A DNA stretch of 64,000 nucleotides from Candidatus Moraniibacteriota bacterium (GCA_049287005.1 JBAQEZ010000002.1:19268-83267); one strand, 5' to 3'. Positions 3,391 to 47,808 are shown, numbered from the stretch's first letter. A program made the numbers and translations. Notes: generated by a model from the letters alone, not told the origin.

Positions 3391-3474
3391 GCCTTGGTGG
3401 CGGAATTGGTAGACGCACTAGCTTCAGGTGCTAGCGCTCGCAAGAGCATGGGAGTTCGAGTCTCCCCTAAGGCA
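3391..3474 (+). tRNA. tRNA-Leu (anticodon CAG), type II with long variable arm
   Basis: Cloverleaf with acceptor GCCTTGG/CTAAGGC, anticodon loop TTCAGGT, T-arm GGGAG-TTCGAGT-CTCCC and a long variable arm. Confidence 0.85.
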
Positions 3475-8188: not shown

Positions 8189-9523
8189 TTAGCTGCGGAT
8201 CAGGGCAAGAAGTTCGTTTCGCTTGATTGCCATCATTTCCGGATCTTTCGCTTCGAGATTGAGGCGGAGCAGGGGTTCGGTATTGGAGGGGCGGACGTTG
8301 AACCACCAGTCGGGGTAGTCCACTTTCAATCCATCGAGCTCGTGTTGCTTGCCGTCAGCGTATTTTTCTCTGAGCTTGGCGAGGATAGCGTTCTTGTCGG
8401 CGACCTCACTGTTGATTTCGCCGGAATGGGAATAGCGCTTCAACCCATGCACCAGTTCGGAAATTTTTTGTCCCGTTTTTACCATCAGATTCAAGAGAAG
8501 GAGTGCTGGCAGCGTGCCGGCCTCGGCAAATGAATTTTCTTCGAAATAATAGTGGCCGGAAAGCTCACCGGCAAAGATAGCACCGTCTTCGCGCATTTGT
8601 TTTTTGATGTTGGCATGACCGACCTTGCATTCTATCGCAACGCCGCCGTTTTCCTCGATGATTTCTTTGACCGCGCGAGAGGAACGGAGATCATAGAGGA
8701 TAGTTGCGCCAGGACGCTTCTCGAGAATGATTTTGGCGAGGAGTCCGGTAACAAGATCCATCGGCATGATTTCTCCTGTCTCGTCGACGAAGCCAATACG
8801 ATCCGCGTCGCCGTCGTACGCGATGCCGAGATCGGCCCGTGATTCTTTCACTTTCGCGCGGAGTTCATCGAGAGTATCAAGCTTGAGCGGGTTGGCTTCA
8901 TGGCATTCGAATGGATGATCGAGGTCATTGTACAGATTGACGATGGAAAGATTTTCGGGGAATTGCTCGTAGATGGGCAGTTCGAACACGCCCATGGCGT
9001 TGGCGGTATCGATAACGAGAGTGAAACGCTTGTCTTGGAACTCCGCGAACGAAGTGAAATAGCCATAATAGGCGGGACAAATATCCTCGGTAGTTATGGC
9101 TCCCTTCTGCGCAACGTTCTTCCAGACACCGCGCAAGGCGAGATCACGGATGGAGTGGAGGCCAGAATTTTCACCCACCGGTATGGCACCGCGCAAGGCG
9201 ATTTTCAAGCCGTTATACTGCGGGGGATTGTGCGAAGCGGTGAGGGAAATAGCCGCATCGATATCCAGGCGTCCGGCAGCGAAATACACCATCGGCGTCG
9301 TGATGACGCCGAGATCTATGACATCGCAACCGGCATCCATCACGCCCCGCGCGAAACTGGCGAAAAGAGACGGGCTTGAGGCGCGGATATCGCGACCGAT
9401 ACCGAGGCATTTCGGTTCGAGATGCTCGACGACCGCACGACCGATAGCATAGGCAGCATCTTCATCGATGTCATCAGGGTAAATACCGCGGATATCATAG
9501 GCCTTGAAAATGTTCGGATTCAT
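8189..9523 (-). CDS. phosphomannomutase/phosphoglucomutase (alpha-D-phosphohexomutase)
   Basis: Active-site TASHNPPQYNG motif and four-domain length of 444 aa. Confidence 0.85.
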   Translation of the reverse strand: MNPNIFKAYDIRGIYPDDIDEDAAYAIGRAVVEHLEPKCLGIGRDIRASSPSLFASFARGVMDAGCDVIDLGVITTPMVYFAAGRLDIDAAISLTASHNPPQYNGLKIALRGAIPVGENSGLHSIRDLALRGVWKNVAQKGAITTEDICPAYYGYFTSFAEFQDKRFTLVIDTANAMGVFELPIYEQFPENLSIVNLYNDLDHPFECHEANPLKLDTLDELRAKVKESRADLGIAYDGDADRIGFVDETGEIMPMDLVTGLLAKIILEKRPGATILYDLRSSRAVKEIIEENGGVAIECKVGHANIKKQMREDGAIFAGELSGHYYFEENSFAEAGTLPALLLLNLMVKTGQKISELVHGLKRYSHSGEINSEVADKNAILAKLREKYADGKQHELDGLKVDYPDWWFNVRPSNTEPLLRLNLEAKDPEMMAIKRNELLALIRS

Positions 9524-23299: not shown

Positions 23300-23372
23300 G
23301 GGCCGTTAGCTCATCTGGTAGAGCACCGCATTTGCAATGCGGGGGTGGCAGGTTCGAGTCCTGTACGGTCCA
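23300..23372 (+). tRNA. tRNA-Ala (anticodon TGC)
   Basis: Cloverleaf with anticodon loop TTTGCAA and the G3·U70 alanine identity pair. Confidence 0.85.
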
Positions 23373-23453
23373 CAATTCCCTTCCTTGATTCTTTCTCGCA
23401 TTCGTGTTAGCATGCGAGATGTTATTTTGCAAGGGGATGGGGATATCCAATGG

Positions 23454-23527
23454 GGGTGATTAGCTCAGTTGGTTAGAGCGCTACACTGATAATGTAGAGG
23501 TCCCAAGTTCGAATCTTGGATCACCCA
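23454..23527 (+). tRNA. tRNA-Ile (anticodon GAT)
   Basis: Cloverleaf with anticodon loop CTGATAA. Confidence 0.85.
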
Positions 23528-23640
23528 CAAAACTGCTCAAGGCAGCAATAATCAATAATCAAATTCCAAGAAATAAAAAAACGTGCTATCTTTGGTTGGT
23601 GATTGGATTTTGGCGATTAGCATTTCAAGTGAAGCGATAG

Positions 23641-23695
23641 AGCGGGATAGAGCAGGCTTGGTAAGTCAGCTCGTCTGGTTTGTAACGAAGAGAAG
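23641..23695 (+). pseudogene. decayed partial copy of the 5' half of the downstream initiator tRNA-Met (AGCGGGATAGAGCAGGCTTGGTAAGTCAGCTCGTCTGG…)
   Basis: Strong similarity to positions 1-35 of the tRNA at 23724, but the anticodon and T arms no longer fold. Confidence 0.4.
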
Positions 23696-23723
23696 GGATG
23701 CAGATAAAGTAAGAATCATATAT

Positions 23724-23797
23724 AGCGGGGTAGAGCAGTCTGGCAGCTCGTCTGGCTCATAACCAGAAGGTCGGTGGTTCGAATCCACCCCCCGCAA
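23724..23797 (+). tRNA. initiator tRNA-fMet (anticodon CAT)
   Basis: Near-identical to E. coli tRNA-fMet over most of its length, with A11:U24 and a 1:72 mismatch (A1·A72). Confidence 0.75.
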
Positions 23798-23908
23798 CAA
23801 GCGATAGCGAAGAGAGGAGGGAGCAAACAAACGGTTTTGCTTGCGATGGATGAGAGGGGATTTTTTCAGTTATTTTTATTTTTGATATTTTCACTTTGAA
23901 CTATCTAT

Positions 23909-23982
23909 GCCAGGGTAGCTCAGTTGGTTAGAGCATAGCCTTCATAAGGCTGGGGTCGCGAGTTCGAATCTCGCCCCTGGTA
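23909..23982 (+). tRNA. tRNA with anticodon CAT: elongator tRNA-Met or lysidine-modified tRNA-Ile2 (not resolvable from sequence)
   Basis: Cloverleaf with anticodon loop TTCATAA, a G1·U72 wobble, and three G-C pairs in the anticodon stem. Confidence 0.7.
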
Positions 23983-23999
23983 CAAGCAATTCAAGACAC

Positions 24000-24076
24000 G
24001 GGGGCGTAGCTCAGCTGGTTAGAGCGACTGCCTGTCACGCAGTAGGTCGCCGGTTCGAGTCCGGTCGCTCCCGCCA
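24000..24076 (+). tRNA. tRNA-Asp (anticodon GTC), CCA encoded
   Basis: Cloverleaf with anticodon loop CTGTCAC, ending …CGCTCCCGCCA. Confidence 0.85.
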
Positions 24077-39895: not shown

Positions 39896-40153
39896 ATGAA
39901 GGCATTTACAGACCAAGTGCTCTCGGTCGTGGCGCGGATCCCGCGCGGCAAGACGCTCAGCTATGCTCAGGTGGCGCGCCAGGCCGGCAGCCCGGGAGCG
40001 GCCCGCGCGGTCGGTTCCATCATGCGGAAAAACGTCGATCCCGCCATTCCCTGCCACCGGGTCATCCGGAGCGACGGCTCTTTGGGACAGTACAATCGCG
40101 GCGGTACGGCAGCCAAAGCCCGCATCCTCCGCGCCGAGGGCGCGCCCTGCTAG
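39896..40153 (+). CDS. ogt: methylated-DNA--protein-cysteine methyltransferase, stand-alone C-terminal (DNA-binding/active-site) domain, 85 aa
   Basis: PCHRVI active-site motif, HTH (…LSYAQVARQAG…) and RAVG… conserved block. Confidence 0.7.
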   Translation: MKAFTDQVLSVVARIPRGKTLSYAQVARQAGSPGAARAVGSIMRKNVDPAIPCHRVIRSDGSLGQYNRGGTAAKARILRAEGAPC

Positions 40154-40183: not shown

Positions 40184-40630
40184 ATGCAGATTCATGAATT
40201 GGGGCATGTCGTGCTGTATGTATCGAGCCTCGCGCGCTCGGCGGATTTTTATCGTGATACGTTGGGGTTCCATGAGATTGCGCGCGATAGGCAAATGGCG
40301 CTTTTCTTTTCCGGCCGCACGCACCATGAATTGCTCCTGATTGAAATAGGCGGCAGCCCGATACCGAAACACGCACCGGCTCCCGGACTGTACCACATCG
40401 GATTCAAGATCGGAGACGGTCCGGAAGCGCTGCAAGCGGCCTATCGCGAATTGCAAGACCGGGGAGTGACCATCATCGGAGCCACGGATCATCACGTGAC
40501 TCACAGCCTCTACATTCTCGATCCCGACGGCAACGAACTCGAACTCTACGCCGACGTCTCGGACGCATGGAAAACCGATCCCCGGGCCGTGCTCAAGCCG
40601 GGCACGTATCTTCCGCTGGAGGATAAATAG
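40184..40630 (+). CDS. VOC-family (glyoxalase/bleomycin-resistance/dioxygenase fold) protein
   Basis: Paired beta-alpha-beta-beta-beta modules (…HVVLYVSSLARSADFYRDTLGF… / …YHIGFKIGD…). Confidence 0.7.
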   Translation: MQIHELGHVVLYVSSLARSADFYRDTLGFHEIARDRQMALFFSGRTHHELLLIEIGGSPIPKHAPAPGLYHIGFKIGDGPEALQAAYRELQDRGVTIIGATDHHVTHSLYILDPDGNELELYADVSDAWKTDPRAVLKPGTYLPLEDK

Positions 40631-40635
40631 ACACG

Positions 40636-40660
40636 AACCTGCTACGAGGCAGGTTTTTTT
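40636..40660 (+). terminator. rho-independent terminator (AACCTGC-tacgag-GCAGGTT + T7) marking the left edge of the AT-rich island
   Basis: Hairpin followed by a T7 tract. Confidence 0.55.
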
Positions 40661-40741
40661 GTGGGGAATAAGTGAATTTTAACTATATTTCAAAAATAAT
40701 TAAATTTAGATTTTTAATAAAAATGGCTTAAATAAAGATAC

Positions 40742-40770
40742 TTGACATGAACATAGAGTCATATTATTAT
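40742..40770 (+). promoter_or_regulatory. candidate promoter TTGACA-17 bp-TATTAT; the predicted transcription start coincides with the lexA ATG (possible leaderless mRNA)
   Basis: Hexamers read from the sequence. The first in-frame ATG of the LexA winged helix (40777) lies 7 nt after the -10. Confidence 0.35.
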
Positions 40771-40776
40771 TTAATT

Positions 40777-41418
40777 ATGAAAAAATATCTTACTCTAAAA
40801 CAAAAAACTGTTCTCGAATTGATTTACGACTCTATCCGTTCTTCCGGTTTCCCGCCCACCCTAGCCGATCTAAAAGAGGAATTAGGAGTGTCTTCCAATC
40901 AGTCGGTTTTGAATTTTTTAGAAATATTAGGGAAAAAGGAATGTATAAAACGTGAAGAAGGGCAGGCACGGAGCATTACAATTTTGCCTTTAGGATATAG
41001 AGAAATAGGGAAAGAACCTCTGGTGCGGGTAACTGGTTATTCAGCAGCTGGACCCTACATTGAATCTTTTACAGAAACTTTGAATTGGTTGCCGCTTGAT
41101 GGGCAGGTCTTGGAGAACGAACAAATAAACCAAGCGCGAGACAAGGTGTTTATTATCCAAGTTATTGGTGATTCTATGATTAATGTGGGAATTAATGATG
41201 GTGATAATTTATTAGTCAAAGAATCCAGGGAGTATAAAAGTGGAGATATTGTTCTCGCGCGAACTGATGATGGCGTAACGGTAAAGCGTTTTATTGCTGA
41301 GGGAGGCAAAAGATATTTAAAGCCGGAAAATCCTACCTATGAAAAAATGGTAATTATCCCCGGCGAAGTACAATTTCAGGGCAAGATAATTCTAAACCTT
41401 TCTAAAATAAACCAATAA
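40777..41418 (+). CDS. lexA: LexA-family repressor (LexA winged-HTH + S24 autopeptidase)
   Basis: N-terminal LexA_DNA_bind pattern (LTLKQKTVLELIYDSIRSSGFPPTLADLKEEL…), S24 catalytic Ser (GDSM) and Lys (VKRF). AT-rich codon usage like the rest of the island. Confidence 0.75.
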   Translation: MKKYLTLKQKTVLELIYDSIRSSGFPPTLADLKEELGVSSNQSVLNFLEILGKKECIKREEGQARSITILPLGYREIGKEPLVRVTGYSAAGPYIESFTETLNWLPLDGQVLENEQINQARDKVFIIQVIGDSMINVGINDGDNLLVKESREYKSGDIVLARTDDGVTVKRFIAEGGKRYLKPENPTYEKMVIIPGEVQFQGKIILNLSKINQ

Positions 41419-41419
41419 T

Positions 41420-43336
41420 ATGGTGGATCAAAAAAAGACCAGTGAAATTTTTGGAAAAATATTTCGGAATCCGGATATGCAATTTGGGCTTTCCGTATTC
41501 GAGGGAATTATTCCGGAACAAGTGCTGAACCTTTTCGAAAAAGAGGGTAAATATTATTTGGAATGTTTAAAAAGAAAGAAAAGTATTCAAGCCAAGCCGG
41601 AAGAAATTGTGCGTCAACTTATGATCCATAAACTGGTTAATTTTTACAAATACCCGCTTGATCGAATGGATGTGGAGGTGGATGTGCAATTCGGTCGAGA
41701 AATCGGATCTAAGAGAGCAGACATTGTTATTTATCGCGAAGATGGTCGGACGCCGTATCTCGTGGTGGAAGTCAAGAAACCAGATGTCAAAGACGGTCTG
41801 GGCCAGCTCAAAAGCTATGCCAATGCGACTGGCGCTCCGATTCTGATACTTACTGATGGGAAAATACAAAATAATATTTTGCGAACTGACCCGAATCTTT
41901 TTGAGGATCTCCCGGAAATTCCGAAGTTTAATGAAACCGTGGAAGACGTGCGATCCAAAAAACTGACTTACAATGATCTTGATGAGATTCCCAATTTGCA
42001 ACAGCTTGTTTATGATTTGCAGGAAGTTGTGCTGGCAAACAGCGGCGTGGACTCCTTCGATGAAATTTTCAAGTTGATCTATGCCAAATTGTATGATGAA
42101 ATTGAAACTCCCAGAAATGAAAACAGGAGGTTCAGGGTAATTGCGGGCGTAACCAACAAAGAGAATCTCAATAATATTCAGCGCCTTTTTGAAGATGCTA
42201 AAAATCAGTGGCGCGATGTGTTCAAGGCGAATGATGAGATAGAGATTCCGGAAAATACGATTGTACCGGCAGTGTCGCTTCTGCAAAAATATCGACTTTT
42301 TGGTTCCAACCTTCAAATTATTGACGACGCTTTTGAATATCTCATCAATTTGGATGCCAAGGGAGAAAAGGGGCAATATTTCACACCACGCCACGTGATC
42401 GATATGGCGGTAAAAATGTTTCACCCCACTTCCAAAGATTTTATTATTGACACCGCCGCGGGCAGTTGCGGATTTTTGCTCCACGCGATGCAATATGTTT
42501 GGAATAATGAGCTTAATAAAGAAAAGTGGGGAGAAAGTTATGGTGTGAAGCAGAAAGATTATGCGGAAAAACGTTTGTTTGGTATAGATTTTGATCCGCG
42601 TTCAGTAAAAATCGGAAAAGCGATGATGCTTATTGCCGGAGACGGGAAAACAAATGTTTCTTATGCCGACTCTCTTGATAGCGAAGTATGGAATGAGGAC
42701 GTGAAGGCGAGGTTCAGGCCGTTTCTTAGAAATTTTAAAGACCATGAAGAAAATAGAAGAAATCAGGAAAAGATGGCTGATTTTAATTTTGATATCGTAC
42801 TTACTAATCCGCCGTTTGCTGGAGAGAAAAAAGGCGTGATTCTCAATCGGTATGATCTTGGGTTCAAGTGGGACAAAGATTTTCAAAAAACATCCAAACA
42901 TCAAAACAAAGTTTCACGCGATGTACTTTTTATCGAACGGGATTTGAATTTCTTGAAGCCAGGCGGGCGAATGGCCATTGTTTTGCCGCAAGGAGTTTTG
43001 AATAATACGCAGATGGAGTATGTCCGCAAGTTTGTCATGAATAAAGCAAAAATTTTGGCGGTGGTGGGGCTTCACGGAAATACTTTCAAACCGCACACGG
43101 GCACAAAAACATCCGTTTTGTTTTTGCAAAAATGGGGTGGTGAAGCTGGCGAGCCACAAGTGGATTACCCGATTTTTATGGCTGTATCCAAAAAGGGCGG
43201 CAAAGATACTTCTGGCGAATATGTTTATAGAAAAGATAGCGAGGGGAATGTGATGTATGACGATTGGGGGAAAAAAATCATTGACCATGATCTAGATGAA
43301 ATCGCGGAGGAGTTTTTGAATTTTATGAAAAAATAA
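41420..43336 (+). CDS. restriction-modification protein: N-terminal PD-(D/E)xK/HSDR_N-like nuclease domain fused to gamma-class N6-adenine DNA methyltransferase (BcgI-A-like, or HsdM with N-terminal nuclease-like domain)
   Basis: Residues about 95-150 (RADIVIYREDGRTPYLVVEVKKPD…ILILTDGK) match the D…EVK nuclease core. Motif I (IIDTAAGSCGFLL) precedes motif IV (NPPF). 638 aa. Starts 1 bp after the lexA stop. Confidence 0.75.
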   Translation: MVDQKKTSEIFGKIFRNPDMQFGLSVFEGIIPEQVLNLFEKEGKYYLECLKRKKSIQAKPEEIVRQLMIHKLVNFYKYPLDRMDVEVDVQFGREIGSKRADIVIYREDGRTPYLVVEVKKPDVKDGLGQLKSYANATGAPILILTDGKIQNNILRTDPNLFEDLPEIPKFNETVEDVRSKKLTYNDLDEIPNLQQLVYDLQEVVLANSGVDSFDEIFKLIYAKLYDEIETPRNENRRFRVIAGVTNKENLNNIQRLFEDAKNQWRDVFKANDEIEIPENTIVPAVSLLQKYRLFGSNLQIIDDAFEYLINLDAKGEKGQYFTPRHVIDMAVKMFHPTSKDFIIDTAAGSCGFLLHAMQYVWNNELNKEKWGESYGVKQKDYAEKRLFGIDFDPRSVKIGKAMMLIAGDGKTNVSYADSLDSEVWNEDVKARFRPFLRNFKDHEENRRNQEKMADFNFDIVLTNPPFAGEKKGVILNRYDLGFKWDKDFQKTSKHQNKVSRDVLFIERDLNFLKPGGRMAIVLPQGVLNNTQMEYVRKFVMNKAKILAVVGLHGNTFKPHTGTKTSVLFLQKWGGEAGEPQVDYPIFMAVSKKGGKDTSGEYVYRKDSEGNVMYDDWGKKIIDHDLDEIAEEFLNFMKK

Positions 43337-43349
43337 TTATTAAAATCAT

Positions 43350-43943
43350 ATGTTTAATCAAAGTAAAGACGGAATAAAGAGTGAAAAGATAATTTATATT
43401 TTTATTGATGCTTCAAATCTTTGGCAAGCACAGAAAGCTAAGGGGAAACTTTTTGATTACGAGAAGCTTAGAAATTTTTTGAAAAGCAAGTTTGAAGGAT
43501 CAGAAATAAAAGTTTTTTACTATACTGCATATCCTGCTGATGGGACGAGAAGTTACAGTACTGATGGGAGACATAAATTTTATACTTTTCTAAAGAAAGG
43601 GCTAGGTTTTGTTGTTAGAAAAAAGGAGTTAAAACGTATATCAGTAATTACTGACGAAGGACAAGCTATTGAGGAAAAGGGAAATATGGACGTGGAAATG
43701 ACCATTGATGTTATACACTATATGAAAAAATATGGTGTAGCTATTTTGTTCACAGGTGATTCAGACTTTTTAGCACTAGTGACTTATTTAAGAAACGGCG
43801 GTAAAAAGGTTTATATTTTTTCATCGGAAAATAATGTTTCTAGAGAGTTAAAAACTGGAGGGGATGGATACTTTGATGTGCTGAAAATCAAAGAAGACAT
43901 CTGGGGCAAGGAGTTAAAATATAGGTCTGAAAAAGCCGAATAA
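43350..43943 (+). CDS. NYN-domain (LabA/PIN-like) putative ribonuclease
   Basis: IFIDASNL, NMDVEMTIDVI and LFTGDSDFLALV acidic motifs of NYN/PIN-like RNases. 13 bp after the M gene stop. Confidence 0.7.
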   Translation: MFNQSKDGIKSEKIIYIFIDASNLWQAQKAKGKLFDYEKLRNFLKSKFEGSEIKVFYYTAYPADGTRSYSTDGRHKFYTFLKKGLGFVVRKKELKRISVITDEGQAIEEKGNMDVEMTIDVIHYMKKYGVAILFTGDSDFLALVTYLRNGGKKVYIFSSENNVSRELKTGGDGYFDVLKIKEDIWGKELKYRSEKAE

Positions 43944-43947
43944 AAAC

Positions 43948-43973
43948 AACCCTCCTCGCGGAGGGTTGCTCTT
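43948..43973 (+). terminator. weak terminator-like hairpin (AACCCTCC-tcgc-GGAGGGTT) with a poor U-tract
   Basis: 8-bp stem read from the sequence. Confidence 0.3.
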
Positions 43974-44097
43974 GGATGTAATACCCTTTCAGTTATGGCT
44001 AACCGAAAGACATTACAAATATAGCAGATTATAATGGTTTGTCAAGGGGTTTACGCTTTCATCAACTAATACACTTATTATTTATATAAATAACAAT

Positions 44098-44451
44098 ATG
44101 GAAAATCAAGACCAGGACAAACTGATGAGACTATATACGAGATTGAGTGCTCTTAAAAATAATTTATCAAAAGATCATGGTATTTTGGACACTTTTGTCA
44201 AAGAATATTACACAATCGTTAATGAGCTAGTCGAGCTAACAGGTTTAAATTTAGACGAATTTAAAATTCCAATGTCTGAGGTTAAACCATATCTAATTGG
44301 TAGAGACTATGATGGACAAAAGACTTATACGGAAGAAATATTTTGTAACGGTTCATTATTTTTTAGTAAATTTGATGCCTTGATGACATATTTTCAAATA
44401 AAATATTTATCAAAAGAAAATATGAAAATTGGCTTTAATACCAAAGAGTAA
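44098..44451 (+). CDS. hypothetical protein (117 aa), immediately upstream of hsdS (3-bp gap)
   Basis: Intact ORF with island-like AT-rich codon usage. No recognisable motif. Confidence 0.4.
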   Translation: MENQDQDKLMRLYTRLSALKNNLSKDHGILDTFVKEYYTIVNELVELTGLNLDEFKIPMSEVKPYLIGRDYDGQKTYTEEIFCNGSLFFSKFDALMTYFQIKYLSKENMKIGFNTKE

Positions 44452-44454
44452 TTT

Positions 44455-45816
44455 ATGAATTTTTCAATAATTCAAAAATCTCAACTCGAAGGCGCTTCGC
44501 GGCTTGATGCTGAATATTATCAGCCGGAGTTTCTAATGTTTGTAAACAATTTAAAGGGGTTTGAATTGCAATTATTGGAAGAAATATCTTCAAAGATAGA
44601 TGTTGGTTTTGTGTCTTCTATGGTAAGACATTTTTGCAATAATGGGGTACCGTTGCTAAGAACACAAAATGTTGATGAGTTTGTTACAGATTTTGAAAAC
44701 GGTATTGTTTATATTGACGAAAAGTTTCATAAACAATTAAAAAAGAGCCAAGTTTATCCCGGGTATGTTTTATTGGCGAGAAGCGGGTCAATTGGCAACG
44801 CGAGTGTTGTAACGGAAAATAATCCGATTGCAAATTCTGCAGATATTATTTTGATAAAACCAAAAGAAAACATCTTGCCAGAGTATTTGGCAGCCTTTTT
44901 AAATTCAAAATACGGTAGGTTTCAGATTGAGAGAGGATCAAGCGGGGGTCTTCAGGGGCATATGAATTTATTTAGTCTCGAAAAAATAATCCTTCCTGTT
45001 GTAAGTATTGATATCCAACAGACGATTAGAATGATAGTTTTGCATGGTCTAGATGCATTCGAAAATTCAAAATTATTATATCAGCAAGCCGAAAATTTAC
45101 TTTTAGAAGCATTGGGATTAAAGGGTTTTGATAATGAGGAAAAATTATCATCAATTGTGAATCTTTCTGAAATAGAGTCAGCTTGTCGTATAGATGCTGA
45201 ATATTATCAGCCAAAGTATAAAATCATTGAAGATAAAGTTAAAAATTATAATGTGCATAAATTAGGTGATTTGGTTTCAATGAAAAAAGGGATTGAAGTC
45301 GGGGCGGAAAAATATCAAGAAGAGGGAAAAGTTTTTATTCGGGTGAGCAGTATGACAAAATTTGGAATTGAGGAGAGTGATCAAAAATACCTGAGCGATA
45401 AATTGTATGAAAAATTGAAAGATGACTTTGAACCAAAAAAAGGTGAAATTTTACTGACCAAGGATGCAACTCCGGGGATTGCTTTTGTTTTGAAAAAAGA
45501 TATTCAAGGGATCGTGTCAGGTGGCACTCTTCGGTTGAAATTGAAAAATGTAGGAGTTGAGCCTGAATATTTGGCACTTTGTCTAAATTCCATTATTGGG
45601 CAAATGCAAGCCGAGCGAGATGCTGGCGGATCAGTCATCGCCCACTGGAAACCGGAACAAATTAAAAATGTTCTTATCCCGATTTTATCCAAGGAAATAC
45701 AACAAAAAATTGCTGATTTTGTTCGACAATCTCACGAAGCACGAAAAAAAGCAAAGGAATTGCTTGAGGAGGCAAAAAGAAAAGTTGAAGAAATGATTGA
45801 GAAAGGGGGTGAATAA
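44455..45816 (+). CDS. hsdS: restriction-modification specificity subunit (HsdS/BcgI-B-like) with two target-recognition domains
   Basis: Duplicated conserved segments (…RLDAEYYQP… and …RIDAEYYQPKY…) flanking two variable TRDs. C-terminal coiled-coil. Confidence 0.85.
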   Translation: MNFSIIQKSQLEGASRLDAEYYQPEFLMFVNNLKGFELQLLEEISSKIDVGFVSSMVRHFCNNGVPLLRTQNVDEFVTDFENGIVYIDEKFHKQLKKSQVYPGYVLLARSGSIGNASVVTENNPIANSADIILIKPKENILPEYLAAFLNSKYGRFQIERGSSGGLQGHMNLFSLEKIILPVVSIDIQQTIRMIVLHGLDAFENSKLLYQQAENLLLEALGLKGFDNEEKLSSIVNLSEIESACRIDAEYYQPKYKIIEDKVKNYNVHKLGDLVSMKKGIEVGAEKYQEEGKVFIRVSSMTKFGIEESDQKYLSDKLYEKLKDDFEPKKGEILLTKDATPGIAFVLKKDIQGIVSGGTLRLKLKNVGVEPEYLALCLNSIIGQMQAERDAGGSVIAHWKPEQIKNVLIPILSKEIQQKIADFVRQSHEARKKAKELLEEAKRKVEEMIEKGGE

Positions 45817-45817
45817 T

Positions 45818-46024
45818 ATGGCAAAATACAATCGGAATTCAGGGAAGCCGTGGACAGGGAAAGAGGTTGAGAAACTTGAAAAACTAGCGAAAGGAAATAC
45901 ACCTACGCGAGTTATCGGTCTTGATCTCGGTCGTACGGAAAATGCAGTTCGAAAGAAAGCATCACAAAATGACATTACTTTAAATCCGCCAAATCAAAAA
46001 CCGTATAATCGGAGGAAAAAATAA
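45818..46024 (+). CDS. small Myb/SANT-like HTH protein (68 aa)
   Basis: KPWTGKEVEKLEKLAKGNTPTRVIGLDLGRTENAVRKKAS fits the W-x2-EE-x-L…G…I…GR-x3-A tri-helical pattern. Same domain as the helicase C-terminus at 29.1 kb. ATG 1 nt after the hsdS stop. Confidence 0.4.
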   Translation: MAKYNRNSGKPWTGKEVEKLEKLAKGNTPTRVIGLDLGRTENAVRKKASQNDITLNPPNQKPYNRRKK

Positions 46025-46215
46025 AGTCATAAATAAAACCAGTGTGTCGATTCAGCTTTTCCGCTCTCCCTGTGAGATATCCGGAAAACAGCATAACGGC
46101 GTGACATTTTTCCAGCTCGAAAGAGTTGGTTTTTGTTTGGGTGTATAATTGGAAAAGAAAAGGGGTCAGGTACCTTTTTGAAAATTACGTAACCGGTTAC
46201 GTACAAGATGAAGCT

Positions 46216-46479
46216 ATGTATTACCTCTATATCCTCAAGTGTGCGGATGGGACGCTGTATACAGGGATCACGGTTGATCTGAAGCGGAGGATCACGGAGC
46301 ATAATAGTTTGGCGCTCGGGGCGAAATATACCCGGGGGCGCCGGCCAGTCATTCTTGTTTTTTCTCAGAAATTTCGCACCCGTTCCACCGCCTCCCAGGT
46401 CGAATCCCGCATCAAGAAACTCTCTCGCATTCAGAAGCTTGAGCTCATTGCCTCTGTTTATGAGGCCAAGAAAGTATAA
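46216..46479 (+). CDS. GIY-YIG nuclease family protein (short stand-alone, YhbQ/UPF0213-like), copy 1
   Basis: YYLYILKCADGTLYTGITVDLKRRITEHN… contains the GIY…YTG and RR…EHN motifs. Start trimmed to ATG 46216. Confidence 0.7.
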   Translation: MYYLYILKCADGTLYTGITVDLKRRITEHNSLALGAKYTRGRRPVILVFSQKFRTRSTASQVESRIKKLSRIQKLELIASVYEAKKV

Positions 46480-46529
46480 AAGAAGCATCCCTCTGCAAAG
46501 CGGGACTTCACAGGGTGTATGATTAAGCC

Positions 46530-47051
46530 ATGAAAAAACGAGTGATCATTGTAATCGGTATCGTCTGTGTCGGCCTCATCGGTATGGTCGGTTTTGCAGT
46601 TTTTAAGAGGCAGTCGCCGGAGCCGGTCGGGTGCACGATGGAGGCGAAGCTCTGCCCGGATGGGTCGGCAGTCGGACGGAGCGGGCCGGAGTGCACATTC
46701 GCTCCGTGCCCGAGTGTCCCGATCGCGAACGAAAATATCCGCGTCACGCTGCCTTTGCCCGATGACGTCGTCAAGAGTCCGCTCAAGATACAAGGCGAAG
46801 CGAGAGGTCTATGGTATTTCGAAGGGAGCTTCCCGGTCTCCATTATCGGCGAGAATGGGATGACGCTCGGGCAAGGAATCGCACAGGCCCAAGGGGATTG
46901 GATGACTACGGACTGGGTGCCGTTCGAGGCAACAATTTCTTTTACCGTGCCCGAAACTGCGACTGGAACACTCATCCTGGAAAAGGACAATTCATCCGGT
47001 CTCCCCGAAAACGCTGACGAGCTCCGCGTCCCCGTGCGTTTCGCTCCTTAA
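46530..47051 (+). CDS. membrane-anchored exported protein with a 4-Cys knob motif and Gmad2-like Ig-fold domain
   Basis: TM anchor, then GCTMEAKLCPDGSAVGRSGPECTFAPCP, then a beta-rich domain resembling Gmad2. Confidence 0.45.
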   Translation: MKKRVIIVIGIVCVGLIGMVGFAVFKRQSPEPVGCTMEAKLCPDGSAVGRSGPECTFAPCPSVPIANENIRVTLPLPDDVVKSPLKIQGEARGLWYFEGSFPVSIIGENGMTLGQGIAQAQGDWMTTDWVPFEATISFTVPETATGTLILEKDNSSGLPENADELRVPVRFAP

Positions 47052-47422: not shown

Positions 47423-47503
47423 ATGCTCCTGATAGTCGTCATAGTGGTCGCGGTCCTCATCTTCGGAGCGGCTTTCATCGCGGTCTCCGAGAAGAAAAAA
47501 TGA
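47423..47503 (+). CDS. possible 26-aa hydrophobic micro-protein (MLLIVVIVVAVLIFGAAFIAVSEKKK)
   Basis: ATG…TGA ORF whose stop overlaps (ATGA) the start of the next ORF. A single TM-like segment. Below the size cut-off of the ORF track. Confidence 0.2.
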   Translation: MLLIVVIVVAVLIFGAAFIAVSEKKK

Positions 47504-47547
47504 AGAAAAAAATAAAAAAAATAGAAAAGATGGAAAGGATGGGAAAA

Positions 47548-47808
47548 ATGAAAAAAAATCTGTATGCTCTCTATATGCTCAGATGCGCGGATGGGACCCT
47601 GTATACGGGGATCACGGTCGATGTGCGCAGGCGGATCAGCGAGCATAACTCTTCGTCGCTGGGGGCGAAATATACCCGCGGGCGGCGACCGGTGAAACTG
47701 GTTTTTTCCAAGTTGTTTCGCAATCGCTCCGAGGCATCCGGAGAAGAGGCTCGCATCAAAAAATTGTCTCGCGCAGAGAAGCTCGCCATGATCAAGAAAA
47801 AAATATGA
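47548..47808 (+). CDS. GIY-YIG nuclease family protein, copy 2 (paralog of 46216..46479)
   Basis: LYALYMLRCADGTLYTGITVDVRRRISEHN…: same motifs. About 75-80 % nucleotide identity to copy 1 over about 230 bp. The track ORF starts at 47500 with a Lys-rich leader. Confidence 0.65.
   Translation: MKKNLYALYMLRCADGTLYTGITVDVRRRISEHNSSSLGAKYTRGRRPVKLVFSKLFRNRSEASGEEARIKKLSRAEKLAMIKKKI

Follow-up and report, generated by a model that had tools for sequence, protein, structure and literature searches.

Controller (C) proteins of restriction-modification (R-M) systems, such as C.PvuII, C.AhdI and C.Esp1396I, are Xre-type helix-turn-helix (HTH) repressors or activators of approximately 70-100 amino acids (aa). 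Each is encoded directly upstream of the restriction gene and on the same strand, is co-transcribed with it, and binds a palindrome in its own promoter. Canonical LexA proteins, as in E. coli and B. subtilis (DinR), are built differently: they contain a winged-helix DNA-binding domain and an S24 autopeptidase with a cleavage site and a Ser/Lys dyad, their operator lies over their own promoter, and lexA is found alone or together with repair genes. The subject of this report is a lexA gene placed immediately in front of an R-M gene, at positions 40742-43336 of a stretch of 64,000 nucleotides (nt) from Candidatus Moraniibacteriota bacterium (GCA_049287005.1, JBAQEZ010000002.1:19268-83267). This whole stretch is referred to below as the window.

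Immune operons that a linked regulator keeps silent until DNA damage is signalled are known from the CapW/BrxR WYL repressors and from CapH-CapP. The locus described here shares the concept with them, but the protein families and sensing mechanisms differ: damage would be sensed here through the LexA-RecA pathway of the cell itself, and R-M takes the place of CBASS or BREX as the cargo. Bacteria of the candidate phyla radiation (CPR) have very small genomes, in most cases without CRISPR, and probably depend on R-M for defence. LexA is not named among the regulators of R-M in a review of the subject from 2013, where it comes up solely with respect to toxin-antitoxin systems (PMC3874152). In our literature search no paper was found that links LexA to R-M control or deals with CPR lexA operons; the motif or the operon may already have been reported in a study of the Patescibacteria SOS network (Sanchez-Osuna, Barbe and Erill 2017, Environ Microbiol 19:3465).

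We consider it likely that the genes in question form a lexA-R-M operon autorepressed by LexA and inducible by activated RecA (RecA*), through which the cells probably tie their anti-phage restriction enzymes to a DNA-damage alarm. Both ingredients, LexA autoregulation and an R-M operon headed by a controller, are of known kinds; the instance in the window is ordinary for its lineage, and the interest lies in the lineage-wide rule.

The lexA gene and its control region

The features of the control region and of the two genes that follow it are listed below.

40635..40663, plus strand: intrinsic terminator of the upstream glyoxalase/VOC gene, stem GAACCTGCTACGAGGCAGGTTT followed by a T-run
40720..40737, plus strand: conserved upstream element AAAATGGCTTAAATAAAG, with GGCT invariant in the upstream alignment
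40742..40770, plus strand: sigma-70-type promoter, TTGACA at 40742-40747, 17-nt spacer, TATTAT at 40765-40770
40747..40762, no strand assigned: candidate LexA operator ATGAACATAGAGTCAT, an imperfect copy of the clade consensus ATGACyAwwTrGTCAT with the core GAC-N6-GTC
40777..41418, plus strand: lexA, 213 aa, winged-helix DNA-binding domain and S24 autopeptidase
41420..43336, plus strand: nuclease-methyltransferase fusion, 638 aa, with an N-terminal HSDR_N_2 PD-(D/E)xK part and a gamma-class N6-adenine methyltransferase

The first-pass annotation of this DNA had named the lexA product a canonical LexA, and profile searches bear this out. The Pfam domains LexA_DNA_bind (PF01726; residues 3-65, E 1.2e-13) and Peptidase_S24 (PF00717; residues 108-205, E 1.6e-24) are both present, and the NCBIfam lexA equivalog TIGR00498 is matched with 135.2 bits (cutoff 110.95). 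In an alignment of 26 sequences (the window protein and 25 homologues) the catalytic residues Ser133 (GDSM) and Lys170 (VKRF) are invariant. The cleavage site SAAG comprises S89-A90-A91-G92, with the cut between Ala91 and Gly92; Ser89 and Gly92 are invariant and Ala90 nearly so. Judged by these features, the protein is a canonical LexA with intact catalytic residues, and its record at NCBI is likewise named "transcriptional repressor LexA" (MFZ2187120.1).

The start of lexA at 40777, which is also that given by NCBI, is the conserved one. The longest open reading frame (ORF) begins at 40747 (223 aa), with its ATG inside the -35 hexamer, and was rejected as an annotation artefact. Such 223-aa starts inside the -35 hexamer have been called in several assemblies (P0001, P0005, P0122), and the N-terminal extension MNIESYYYLI of the window (40747-40776) resembles MTIESYYYRD in a more distant homologue (P0064). 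The recurring extension is probably translated conserved promoter DNA.

TTGACA-17-TATTAT is the best promoter-like site in the region 40300-46600 (11/12 matches), and its hexamers are kept in all aligned relatives. The lexA ATG lies only 6 nt past the -10 hexamer, which leaves no room for a Shine-Dalgarno sequence; the mRNA should therefore be leaderless, and lexA is probably translated from it as such. This geometry (the promoter, 6-8 nt from the -10 hexamer to the ATG, and lexA abutting an R-M gene) recurs in 68 of 71 distinct relatives, which strongly supports, as a structural reading, the earlier proposal of a leaderless promoter. The predicted lack of a leader sets this lexA mRNA apart from that of canonical lexA.

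A shared palindromic box had been suspected somewhere within 40660-40776, and one is indeed present. The AT-rich inverted repeat named at first, TTAAATTTAGATTTTTAA (about 40699-40716), was discarded because it is not conserved among relatives. The conserved palindrome is instead ATGAACATAGAGTCAT, in the spacer between the promoter hexamers; it starts on the final base of the -35 hexamer and stops 3 nt short of the -10 hexamer. Among 70 unique promoters, 66 carry this 16-bp palindrome at a fixed position, beginning 29-31 nt upstream of the ATG. A position weight matrix built from the same 70 promoters gave, at a threshold of 14 bits or more, 72 matches at lexA promoters and 6 elsewhere in 965 kb, where 4-8 are expected by chance (shuffled sequence); the four of these six that were examined all lie in coding sequence. 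In some lineages both half-sites have changed symmetrically, e.g. from ATGAC..GTCAT to CCGAC..GTCGG, and such paired change is a signature pointing to a dimeric binding protein. The 16-bp spacer palindrome, and not the AT-rich repeat, is thus likely to be the LexA operator.

The candidate operator (ATGAC-N6-GTCAT) differs from such known LexA motifs as CTGT-N8-ACAG and GAAC-N4-GTTC, the latter of which is only half resembled by the copy in the window. The Cheo-type box GAAC-N4-GTTC itself was tried and rejected, as it is not enriched in the window (13 sites with at most one mismatch, 29 expected; no perfect site). Elsewhere in the window TGAC-N6-GTCA occurs at chance level (19 sites, 20 expected), and a second operator was not found there.

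Two further elements lie upstream of the promoter. Many relatives have a full hairpin with a T-run (AAAATGGCTTA..TAAGCCATTTT) just 5' of the -35 hexamer, of which the window keeps the left arm only; the arms show compensatory changes (GGC/GCC to AGC/GCT). In the loci L020, L021, L025, L049, L071 and L078 the hairpin is located at about -68 to -40, and the preceding genes differ. Its appearance is that of an insulating terminator forming part of the lexA "head". Of 68 unique promoters, 37 have a perfect DnaA box (TTATCCACA) in the 160 nt preceding lexA (background approximately 0.011 per 160 nt); 0.9 Mb contains 65 perfect boxes altogether, of which these 37 represent more than half. They are located at about -51 to -62 from the lexA ATG in L029, L037 and L050 and, in reverse orientation, at about -81 to -94 in L025, L041 and L049. 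Their presence suggests that in many lineages DnaA also conveys replication status to the lexA-R-M operon. The box is absent from positions 40600-40777 of the window, whose sub-clade has lost it.

R-M genes behind lexA in related genomes

The arrangement was compared across 94 loci, representing 71 distinct LexA proteins (51-93% identity) with at least 200 nt of downstream sequence, from Moranbacteria, Nomurabacteria, Paceibacterota and the "Patescibacteria group". A scan of metagenomes contributed 80 further loci (51-93% identity) and a scan of genome collections 3. The retrieval was not biased toward R-M genes, because the search patterns were LexA peptides only. The closest LexA homologues (63-92% identity) all belong to Moranbacteria or Parcubacteria, and in every contig examined the R-M fusion gene comes right after lexA. 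Counted by distinct LexA proteins, the following was found directly downstream of lexA:

55: this R-M family (HSDR_N_2-methylase fusion)
13: another R-M gene
1: an NYN gene only
1: a partial ORF without assignment
1: no R-M gene (a convergent transporter)

An R-M gene is thus the immediate neighbour in 68 of 71 cases (approximately 96%), which argues for LexA as the first cistron of a restriction operon, as had been proposed. The accompanying remark that such a placement would be unusual for a cell's only lexA does not hold, as it is the norm of the lineage. In the window the lexA stop codon TAA (41416-41418) is followed by a single base (41419) and the ATG of the 638-aa ORF (41420), in agreement with the 1-bp gap reported earlier, and inspection of this junction revealed neither a terminator nor a Shine-Dalgarno sequence. 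Among the 55 unique relatives with the same R-M family the gap is mostly between -20 and +9 nt, +1 being the commonest value.

The 13 other cassettes include DpnI, a C5 methylase, N6_N4 methylases (one with a TdeIII endonuclease), an N6_Mtase with a half-size specificity (S) subunit, a TaqI-like fusion, and an unassigned ORF followed by a Tsp45I/DpnII-like endonuclease. All of them begin with a methylase or a methylase-containing fusion except two, L016 (DpnI) and L052 (an unassigned 393-aa ORF). The prevailing R-M family itself falls into two clades, 69-95% and 45-54% identical to the window protein. In clustering based on LexA identity these clades are mostly congruent with LexA groups, and the other R-M types appear as sporadic nested replacements; for this reason we regard lexA as constant and the cassette as exchangeable. 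On this comparison, lexA with its operator-promoter is the constant head, and at least seven to eight kinds of R-M cassette have replaced one another behind it.

The R-M subunit evolves more slowly than LexA, with 77-88% identity where LexA shows 52-70%. Recent sweeps of the R-M family were considered as an explanation and rejected, since synonymous sites look largely saturated: the genes share 73-83% nucleotide identity at 78-93% aa identity, and only 48-60% of the identical residues use the same codon. The high conservation can therefore be attributed to purifying selection. In three further relative contexts (Nomurabacteria, Paceibacterota and "Patescibacteria group") the genes on either side of the operon are ordinary housekeeping genes. 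Loci of the Nomurabacteria type have the order lexA-N6_Mtase-S, followed on the same strand by a gene for a 967-aa UvrD helicase with a PD-(D/E)xK domain, AddA-like (L069 13823-16723; L093 11823-14726).

Homologues of the R-M fusion that are 65-68% identical to it were found in Uhrbacteria, Gracilibacteria and Absconditabacterales. In two of the three contexts examined (66-67% identity) a 69-aa gene of the HTH_3 (Xre) type lies 4 nt upstream of the fusion gene; in the third no adjacent regulator was found. The suggested analogy between LexA here and a C-protein-like controller gains direct support, in that the HTH_3 gene occupies the very place of lexA. Since either a C-like protein or LexA can stand at the head of closely related R-M systems, LexA appears to act as the controller in this lineage. 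It does not belong to the C protein family, being a 213-aa protein with a LexA winged helix and an S24 domain, but it is positionally, and probably functionally, analogous: its gene lies upstream of the R-M gene on the same strand, and a candidate palindrome is present in the shared promoter. C proteins lack a damage input, whereas LexA could be inactivated by RecA*. The sister systems headed by C proteins (L099 5787-12198; the P0302 context) sit in defence islands, next to SIR2_2, DUF87, SLFN/AlbA_2, GmrSD, DUF2779 and a ParB-N6_N4 methylase.

A proposed LexA-RecA circuit and its alternatives

Comparison of the loci (gene identities, the 1-nt junction, promoter geometry, operator position, linkage, cassette exchange and equivalence to C proteins) points to a circuit for which we infer co-transcription, binding of LexA to the palindrome, RecA*-dependent cleavage, induction and a physiological purpose. 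The lexA and R-M genes would constitute one transcription unit, starting at the A of the lexA ATG. A LexA dimer bound to the spacer palindrome would block RNA polymerase, and LexA would thereby keep both its own production and that of the Type IIB-like nuclease-methylase low and self-limiting; the reach of this control into the NYN and S genes further downstream is less certain. Accumulation of single-stranded DNA, originating from damage, stalled replication, or the processing of ends from restricted incoming or insufficiently methylated DNA, would lead to RecA filaments, self-cleavage of LexA at Ala91-Gly92 by Ser133/Lys170, and derepression. As the palindrome is placed like the operator of canonical LexA, negative autoregulation with RecA*-triggered release is what would be expected. 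LexA would in this way take the position of a controller protein and add a DNA-damage input, while the cargo, R-M, differs from that of canonical lexA. The SOS response is known to be induced by an imbalance of R-M activity and by post-segregational killing (PMC3874152), so that DNA ends made by restriction, be it of invaders or of self DNA short of methylation, could feed back on the operon.

As to purpose, we rank first an increase in restriction and modification upon DNA damage or invasion, and second a feedback protection from self-restriction through more methylase. The latter fits the observation that a methylase or methylase fusion almost always comes first after lexA.

Several points weigh against such a circuit. 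It would seem dangerous for a cell to make more of a restriction nuclease once its DNA has been damaged, and classical Type I systems, to judge from accounts of restriction alleviation after damage, do the opposite (PMC11109961, PMC4231737). The operator of the window has an imperfect left half-site (GAA for GAC) and scores 15.8 bits, compared with 21-22 for the best copies. There may be an internal promoter inside lexA, and a hairpin and a promoter-like site at 43950-44035 may uncouple the S gene from LexA control. Furthermore, the recA upstream regions of three lineages (L071, L078/L081 and L053) lack the operator (best score at most 3.5 bits), and no excess of operators was detected outside lexA promoters in about 0.9 Mb around lexA. 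Nor was any repair gene with an operator found in the window and these related loci. With no other operator found and recA lacking it, a classical SOS regulon could not be demonstrated from these loci, and LexA could be a dedicated regulator.

Taken to its end, this thought would make the gene a controller paralogue that resembles LexA and regulates only its own operon, while a separate housekeeping lexA runs the SOS response. We consider this unlikely. It would agree with the operator at lexA being the only one found within 10 kb on either side, with the recA upstream regions just mentioned, with the position typical of a C protein, and with lexA travelling in the window as part of a foreign island (GC content at third codon positions, GC3, 0.34). 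However, the protein passes the equivalog cutoff for lexA; the best 120 of 1476 and the best 120 of 1251 significant homologue matches are all two-domain proteins, and every name given to them is LexA. A second LexA or S24 gene was found neither in the window nor in about 0.9 Mb of related loci, the flanks in relatives are housekeeping genes, and genomes of approximately 1 Mb, as these bacteria have, rarely retain paralogous regulators. Moreover, recA adjoins the lexA-R-M operon in 6 loci (L071 3817-4776; L078/L079 8898-9863; L081 5945-6910; L053 14573-15499; L063 2-826, minus strand), which fits a bona fide LexA. It is quite improbable, too, that the adjacency carries no regulatory meaning, i.e. 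that the site after lexA is a hotspot of R-M insertion or recombination (a defence-island anchor) and the R-M genes have promoters of their own. Defence hotspots beside conserved genes are known in other bacteria, unrelated cassette types have replaced one another at this site, and accessory genes such as NYN move between modules; against this stand an orientation that is always the same, gaps of -20 to +9 nt without a terminator, often in the form TAA-T-ATG, and the methylase-first order in all but two of the 13 loci with other cassettes. So tight and uniform a coupling is not expected from insertion preference alone, and a hotspot and an operon can coexist.

The palindrome itself could be read in another way, as the recognition site of the R-M enzyme or methylase, which would autoregulate by promoter binding or methylation. 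A bipartite form with an N6 spacer is typical of Type I/IIB sites, as GAC-N6-GTC would be. Some methylases do autoregulate by binding their own promoters (PMC3874152). Nevertheless, the palindrome is retained whatever R-M type follows, including systems read as DpnI, C5 and N6_N4 types, and it is kept although the S subunits are only 35-62% identical, so that their specificities should differ. It is absent from L099, the homologous C-protein-headed system without lexA, and LexA is its only constant partner. Because of this persistence across R-M types and divergent S subunits we take the palindrome for the likely LexA operator, and its reading as a recognition site is very improbable. Next to no credence can be given to a metagenomic mis-assembly of two organisms as the origin of a low-GC lexA-R-M block in a contig of 52% GC. 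The compositional step is sharp, but the glyoxalase-lexA-methylase junction recurs in two independent single-run assemblies (L091, L092) and in two NCBI records of metagenome-assembled genomes with identical genes, and the left junction is therefore not chimeric. Both edges lie at terminators in intergenic DNA, and the host genes on both sides have relatives in Moranbacteria loci.

Returning to the LexA-autorepressed operon, a wider claim can be put forward only tentatively, and we hold it to be possible rather than probable: the LexA-RecA circuit of Parcubacteria/Paceibacterota may have been repurposed from a repair regulon into a master switch of innate immunity. The lexA operon would then be a universal docking site for R-M genes, the regulon would consist essentially of lexA and R-M, recA would be unregulated, restriction-made ends would raise R-M via RecA*, and in many lineages DnaA boxes would provide an additional input. 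If the only damage-sensing repressor of CPR bacteria were hard-wired to R-M, the core output of the SOS response would differ in a very large part of bacterial diversity. R-M control would also have a new mode, with a cleavable LexA instead of the C protein, and CPR genomes could be searched for R-M cassettes by a simple rule, namely by looking downstream of lexA.

The R-M module and its genomic setting

In Type IIB systems such as BcgI and BsaXI a nuclease and an N6-adenine methylase are joined in one polypeptide and a separate HsdS-like subunit carries two recognition domains; the module in the window has the same composition, and its fusion protein resembles a Type IIB R-M subunit. The residues D101, E117 and K119 (HSDR_N_2) and NPPF at 463-466 (N6_Mtase) are invariant in 44 homologues. 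The protein matches the PADLOC model MTase_I (PDLC03034) with 616 bits over nearly its full length, and its best solved relative is RM.BsaXI (8w0p, E 2.7e-24); the sequence alignment with BsaXI is confined to the methylase part (residues 211-575). Unlike Type IIB enzymes, the family carries the database label "Type I M", and cleavage on both sides of a bipartite site would be a prediction by analogy. No helicase/translocase gene (HsdR) is present in the region 40.7-46.1 kb. We know of no Type IIB system headed by lexA. The best NCBIfam matches of the fusion and the S subunit are MAD2 and MAD5 of the MADS system, but membership in MADS was rejected, as the scores are far below the cutoffs (MAD2 307.5 vs 720; MAD5 182.4 vs 400) and the remaining MADS genes are absent from the module.

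Downstream of the fusion gene the module contains the following features.

43350..43943, plus strand: NYN-domain protein, 197 aa (Pfam NYN 4.2e-22), in a variable slot between the R-M and S genes
43950..43967, plus strand: GC-rich hairpin CCCTCC-TCGC-GGAGGG with a weak T tail, a possible partial terminator
44007-44035, plus strand: promoter-like AAGACA-17-TATAAT, after the GC-rich hairpin
44098..44451, plus strand: small ORF, 117 aa, without family match and with one relative among the loci (L067, 43% identity)
44455..45816, plus strand: specificity (HsdS-like) subunit, 453 aa, Pfam Methylase_S in two stretches, i.e. two target-recognition domains
45818..46024, plus strand: small basic ORF, 68 aa, GC3 0.30, the last low-GC gene of the module
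46112..46137, plus strand: terminator-like hairpin with a T-run, the right edge of the module, followed by GIY-YIG and Gmad2 genes of host composition

The NYN gene is present in only a subset of modules. Its product is 87% identical between L014 (12568-13158) and L030 (5663-6253), whose R-M genes belong to different clades, and in L015 it is encoded (8864-9454) directly after lexA, without R-M genes and with gyrB downstream. On these grounds the gene is best described as a mobile accessory of the module. Given the hairpin and promoter-like site behind it, the S gene may be expressed by read-through from the lexA promoter or may have a promoter of its own as well. The S subunit matches PADLOC Specificity_I with 202 bits, and the 35-62% identity of S subunits, among modules whose R-M subunits are 77-95% identical, is what is expected of specificity determinants. 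For the 68-aa ORF, neither a family match nor relatives in the loci were found. The 7-nt junction TAATATG (stop, one base, start) occurs both between lexA and the R-M gene (41416-41422) and between the S gene and the 68-aa ORF (45814-45820), which suggests translational coupling at both places.

The whole module, including lexA, is compositionally foreign. Its GC3 values range from 0.25 to 0.43 (lexA 0.34, R-M gene 0.43, NYN 0.28, S gene 0.29), compared with 0.60-0.69 for host genes (RNase J, GroEL, PilB, TopA, PIF1 and others), which confirms the AT-rich, island-like codons noted for lexA in the first-pass annotation. The low-GC block extends from approximately 40660 to approximately 46030, between two terminators, in a 116.5-kb contig and a genome of 52% GC; GC falls from approximately 0.55 to below 0.40 right after the terminator at 40635-40663, which marks the left edge. 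In this Moraniibacteriota genome the module, with its lexA, appears to have been acquired from a lower-GC relative. A search for flanking direct repeats (att sites) gave only AT-rich chance matches, and the module contains no integrase or transposase.

Immediately upstream of the module, host genes encode an 85-aa MGMT-type DNA_binding_1 protein (39896-40153) and a glyoxalase/bleomycin-resistance VOC protein (40184-40630), so that both neighbours of lexA on this side are related to DNA damage or toxins. Just downstream there are two small paralogues with a GIY-YIG nuclease domain (46216-46479 and 47500-47808), a homologue of which is located immediately upstream of lexA in L003 (9438-9833); these genes may be a remnant of a shared ancestral neighbourhood. 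Five clustered tRNA genes were located in the window at 23300-24073, and another at 3391-3474.

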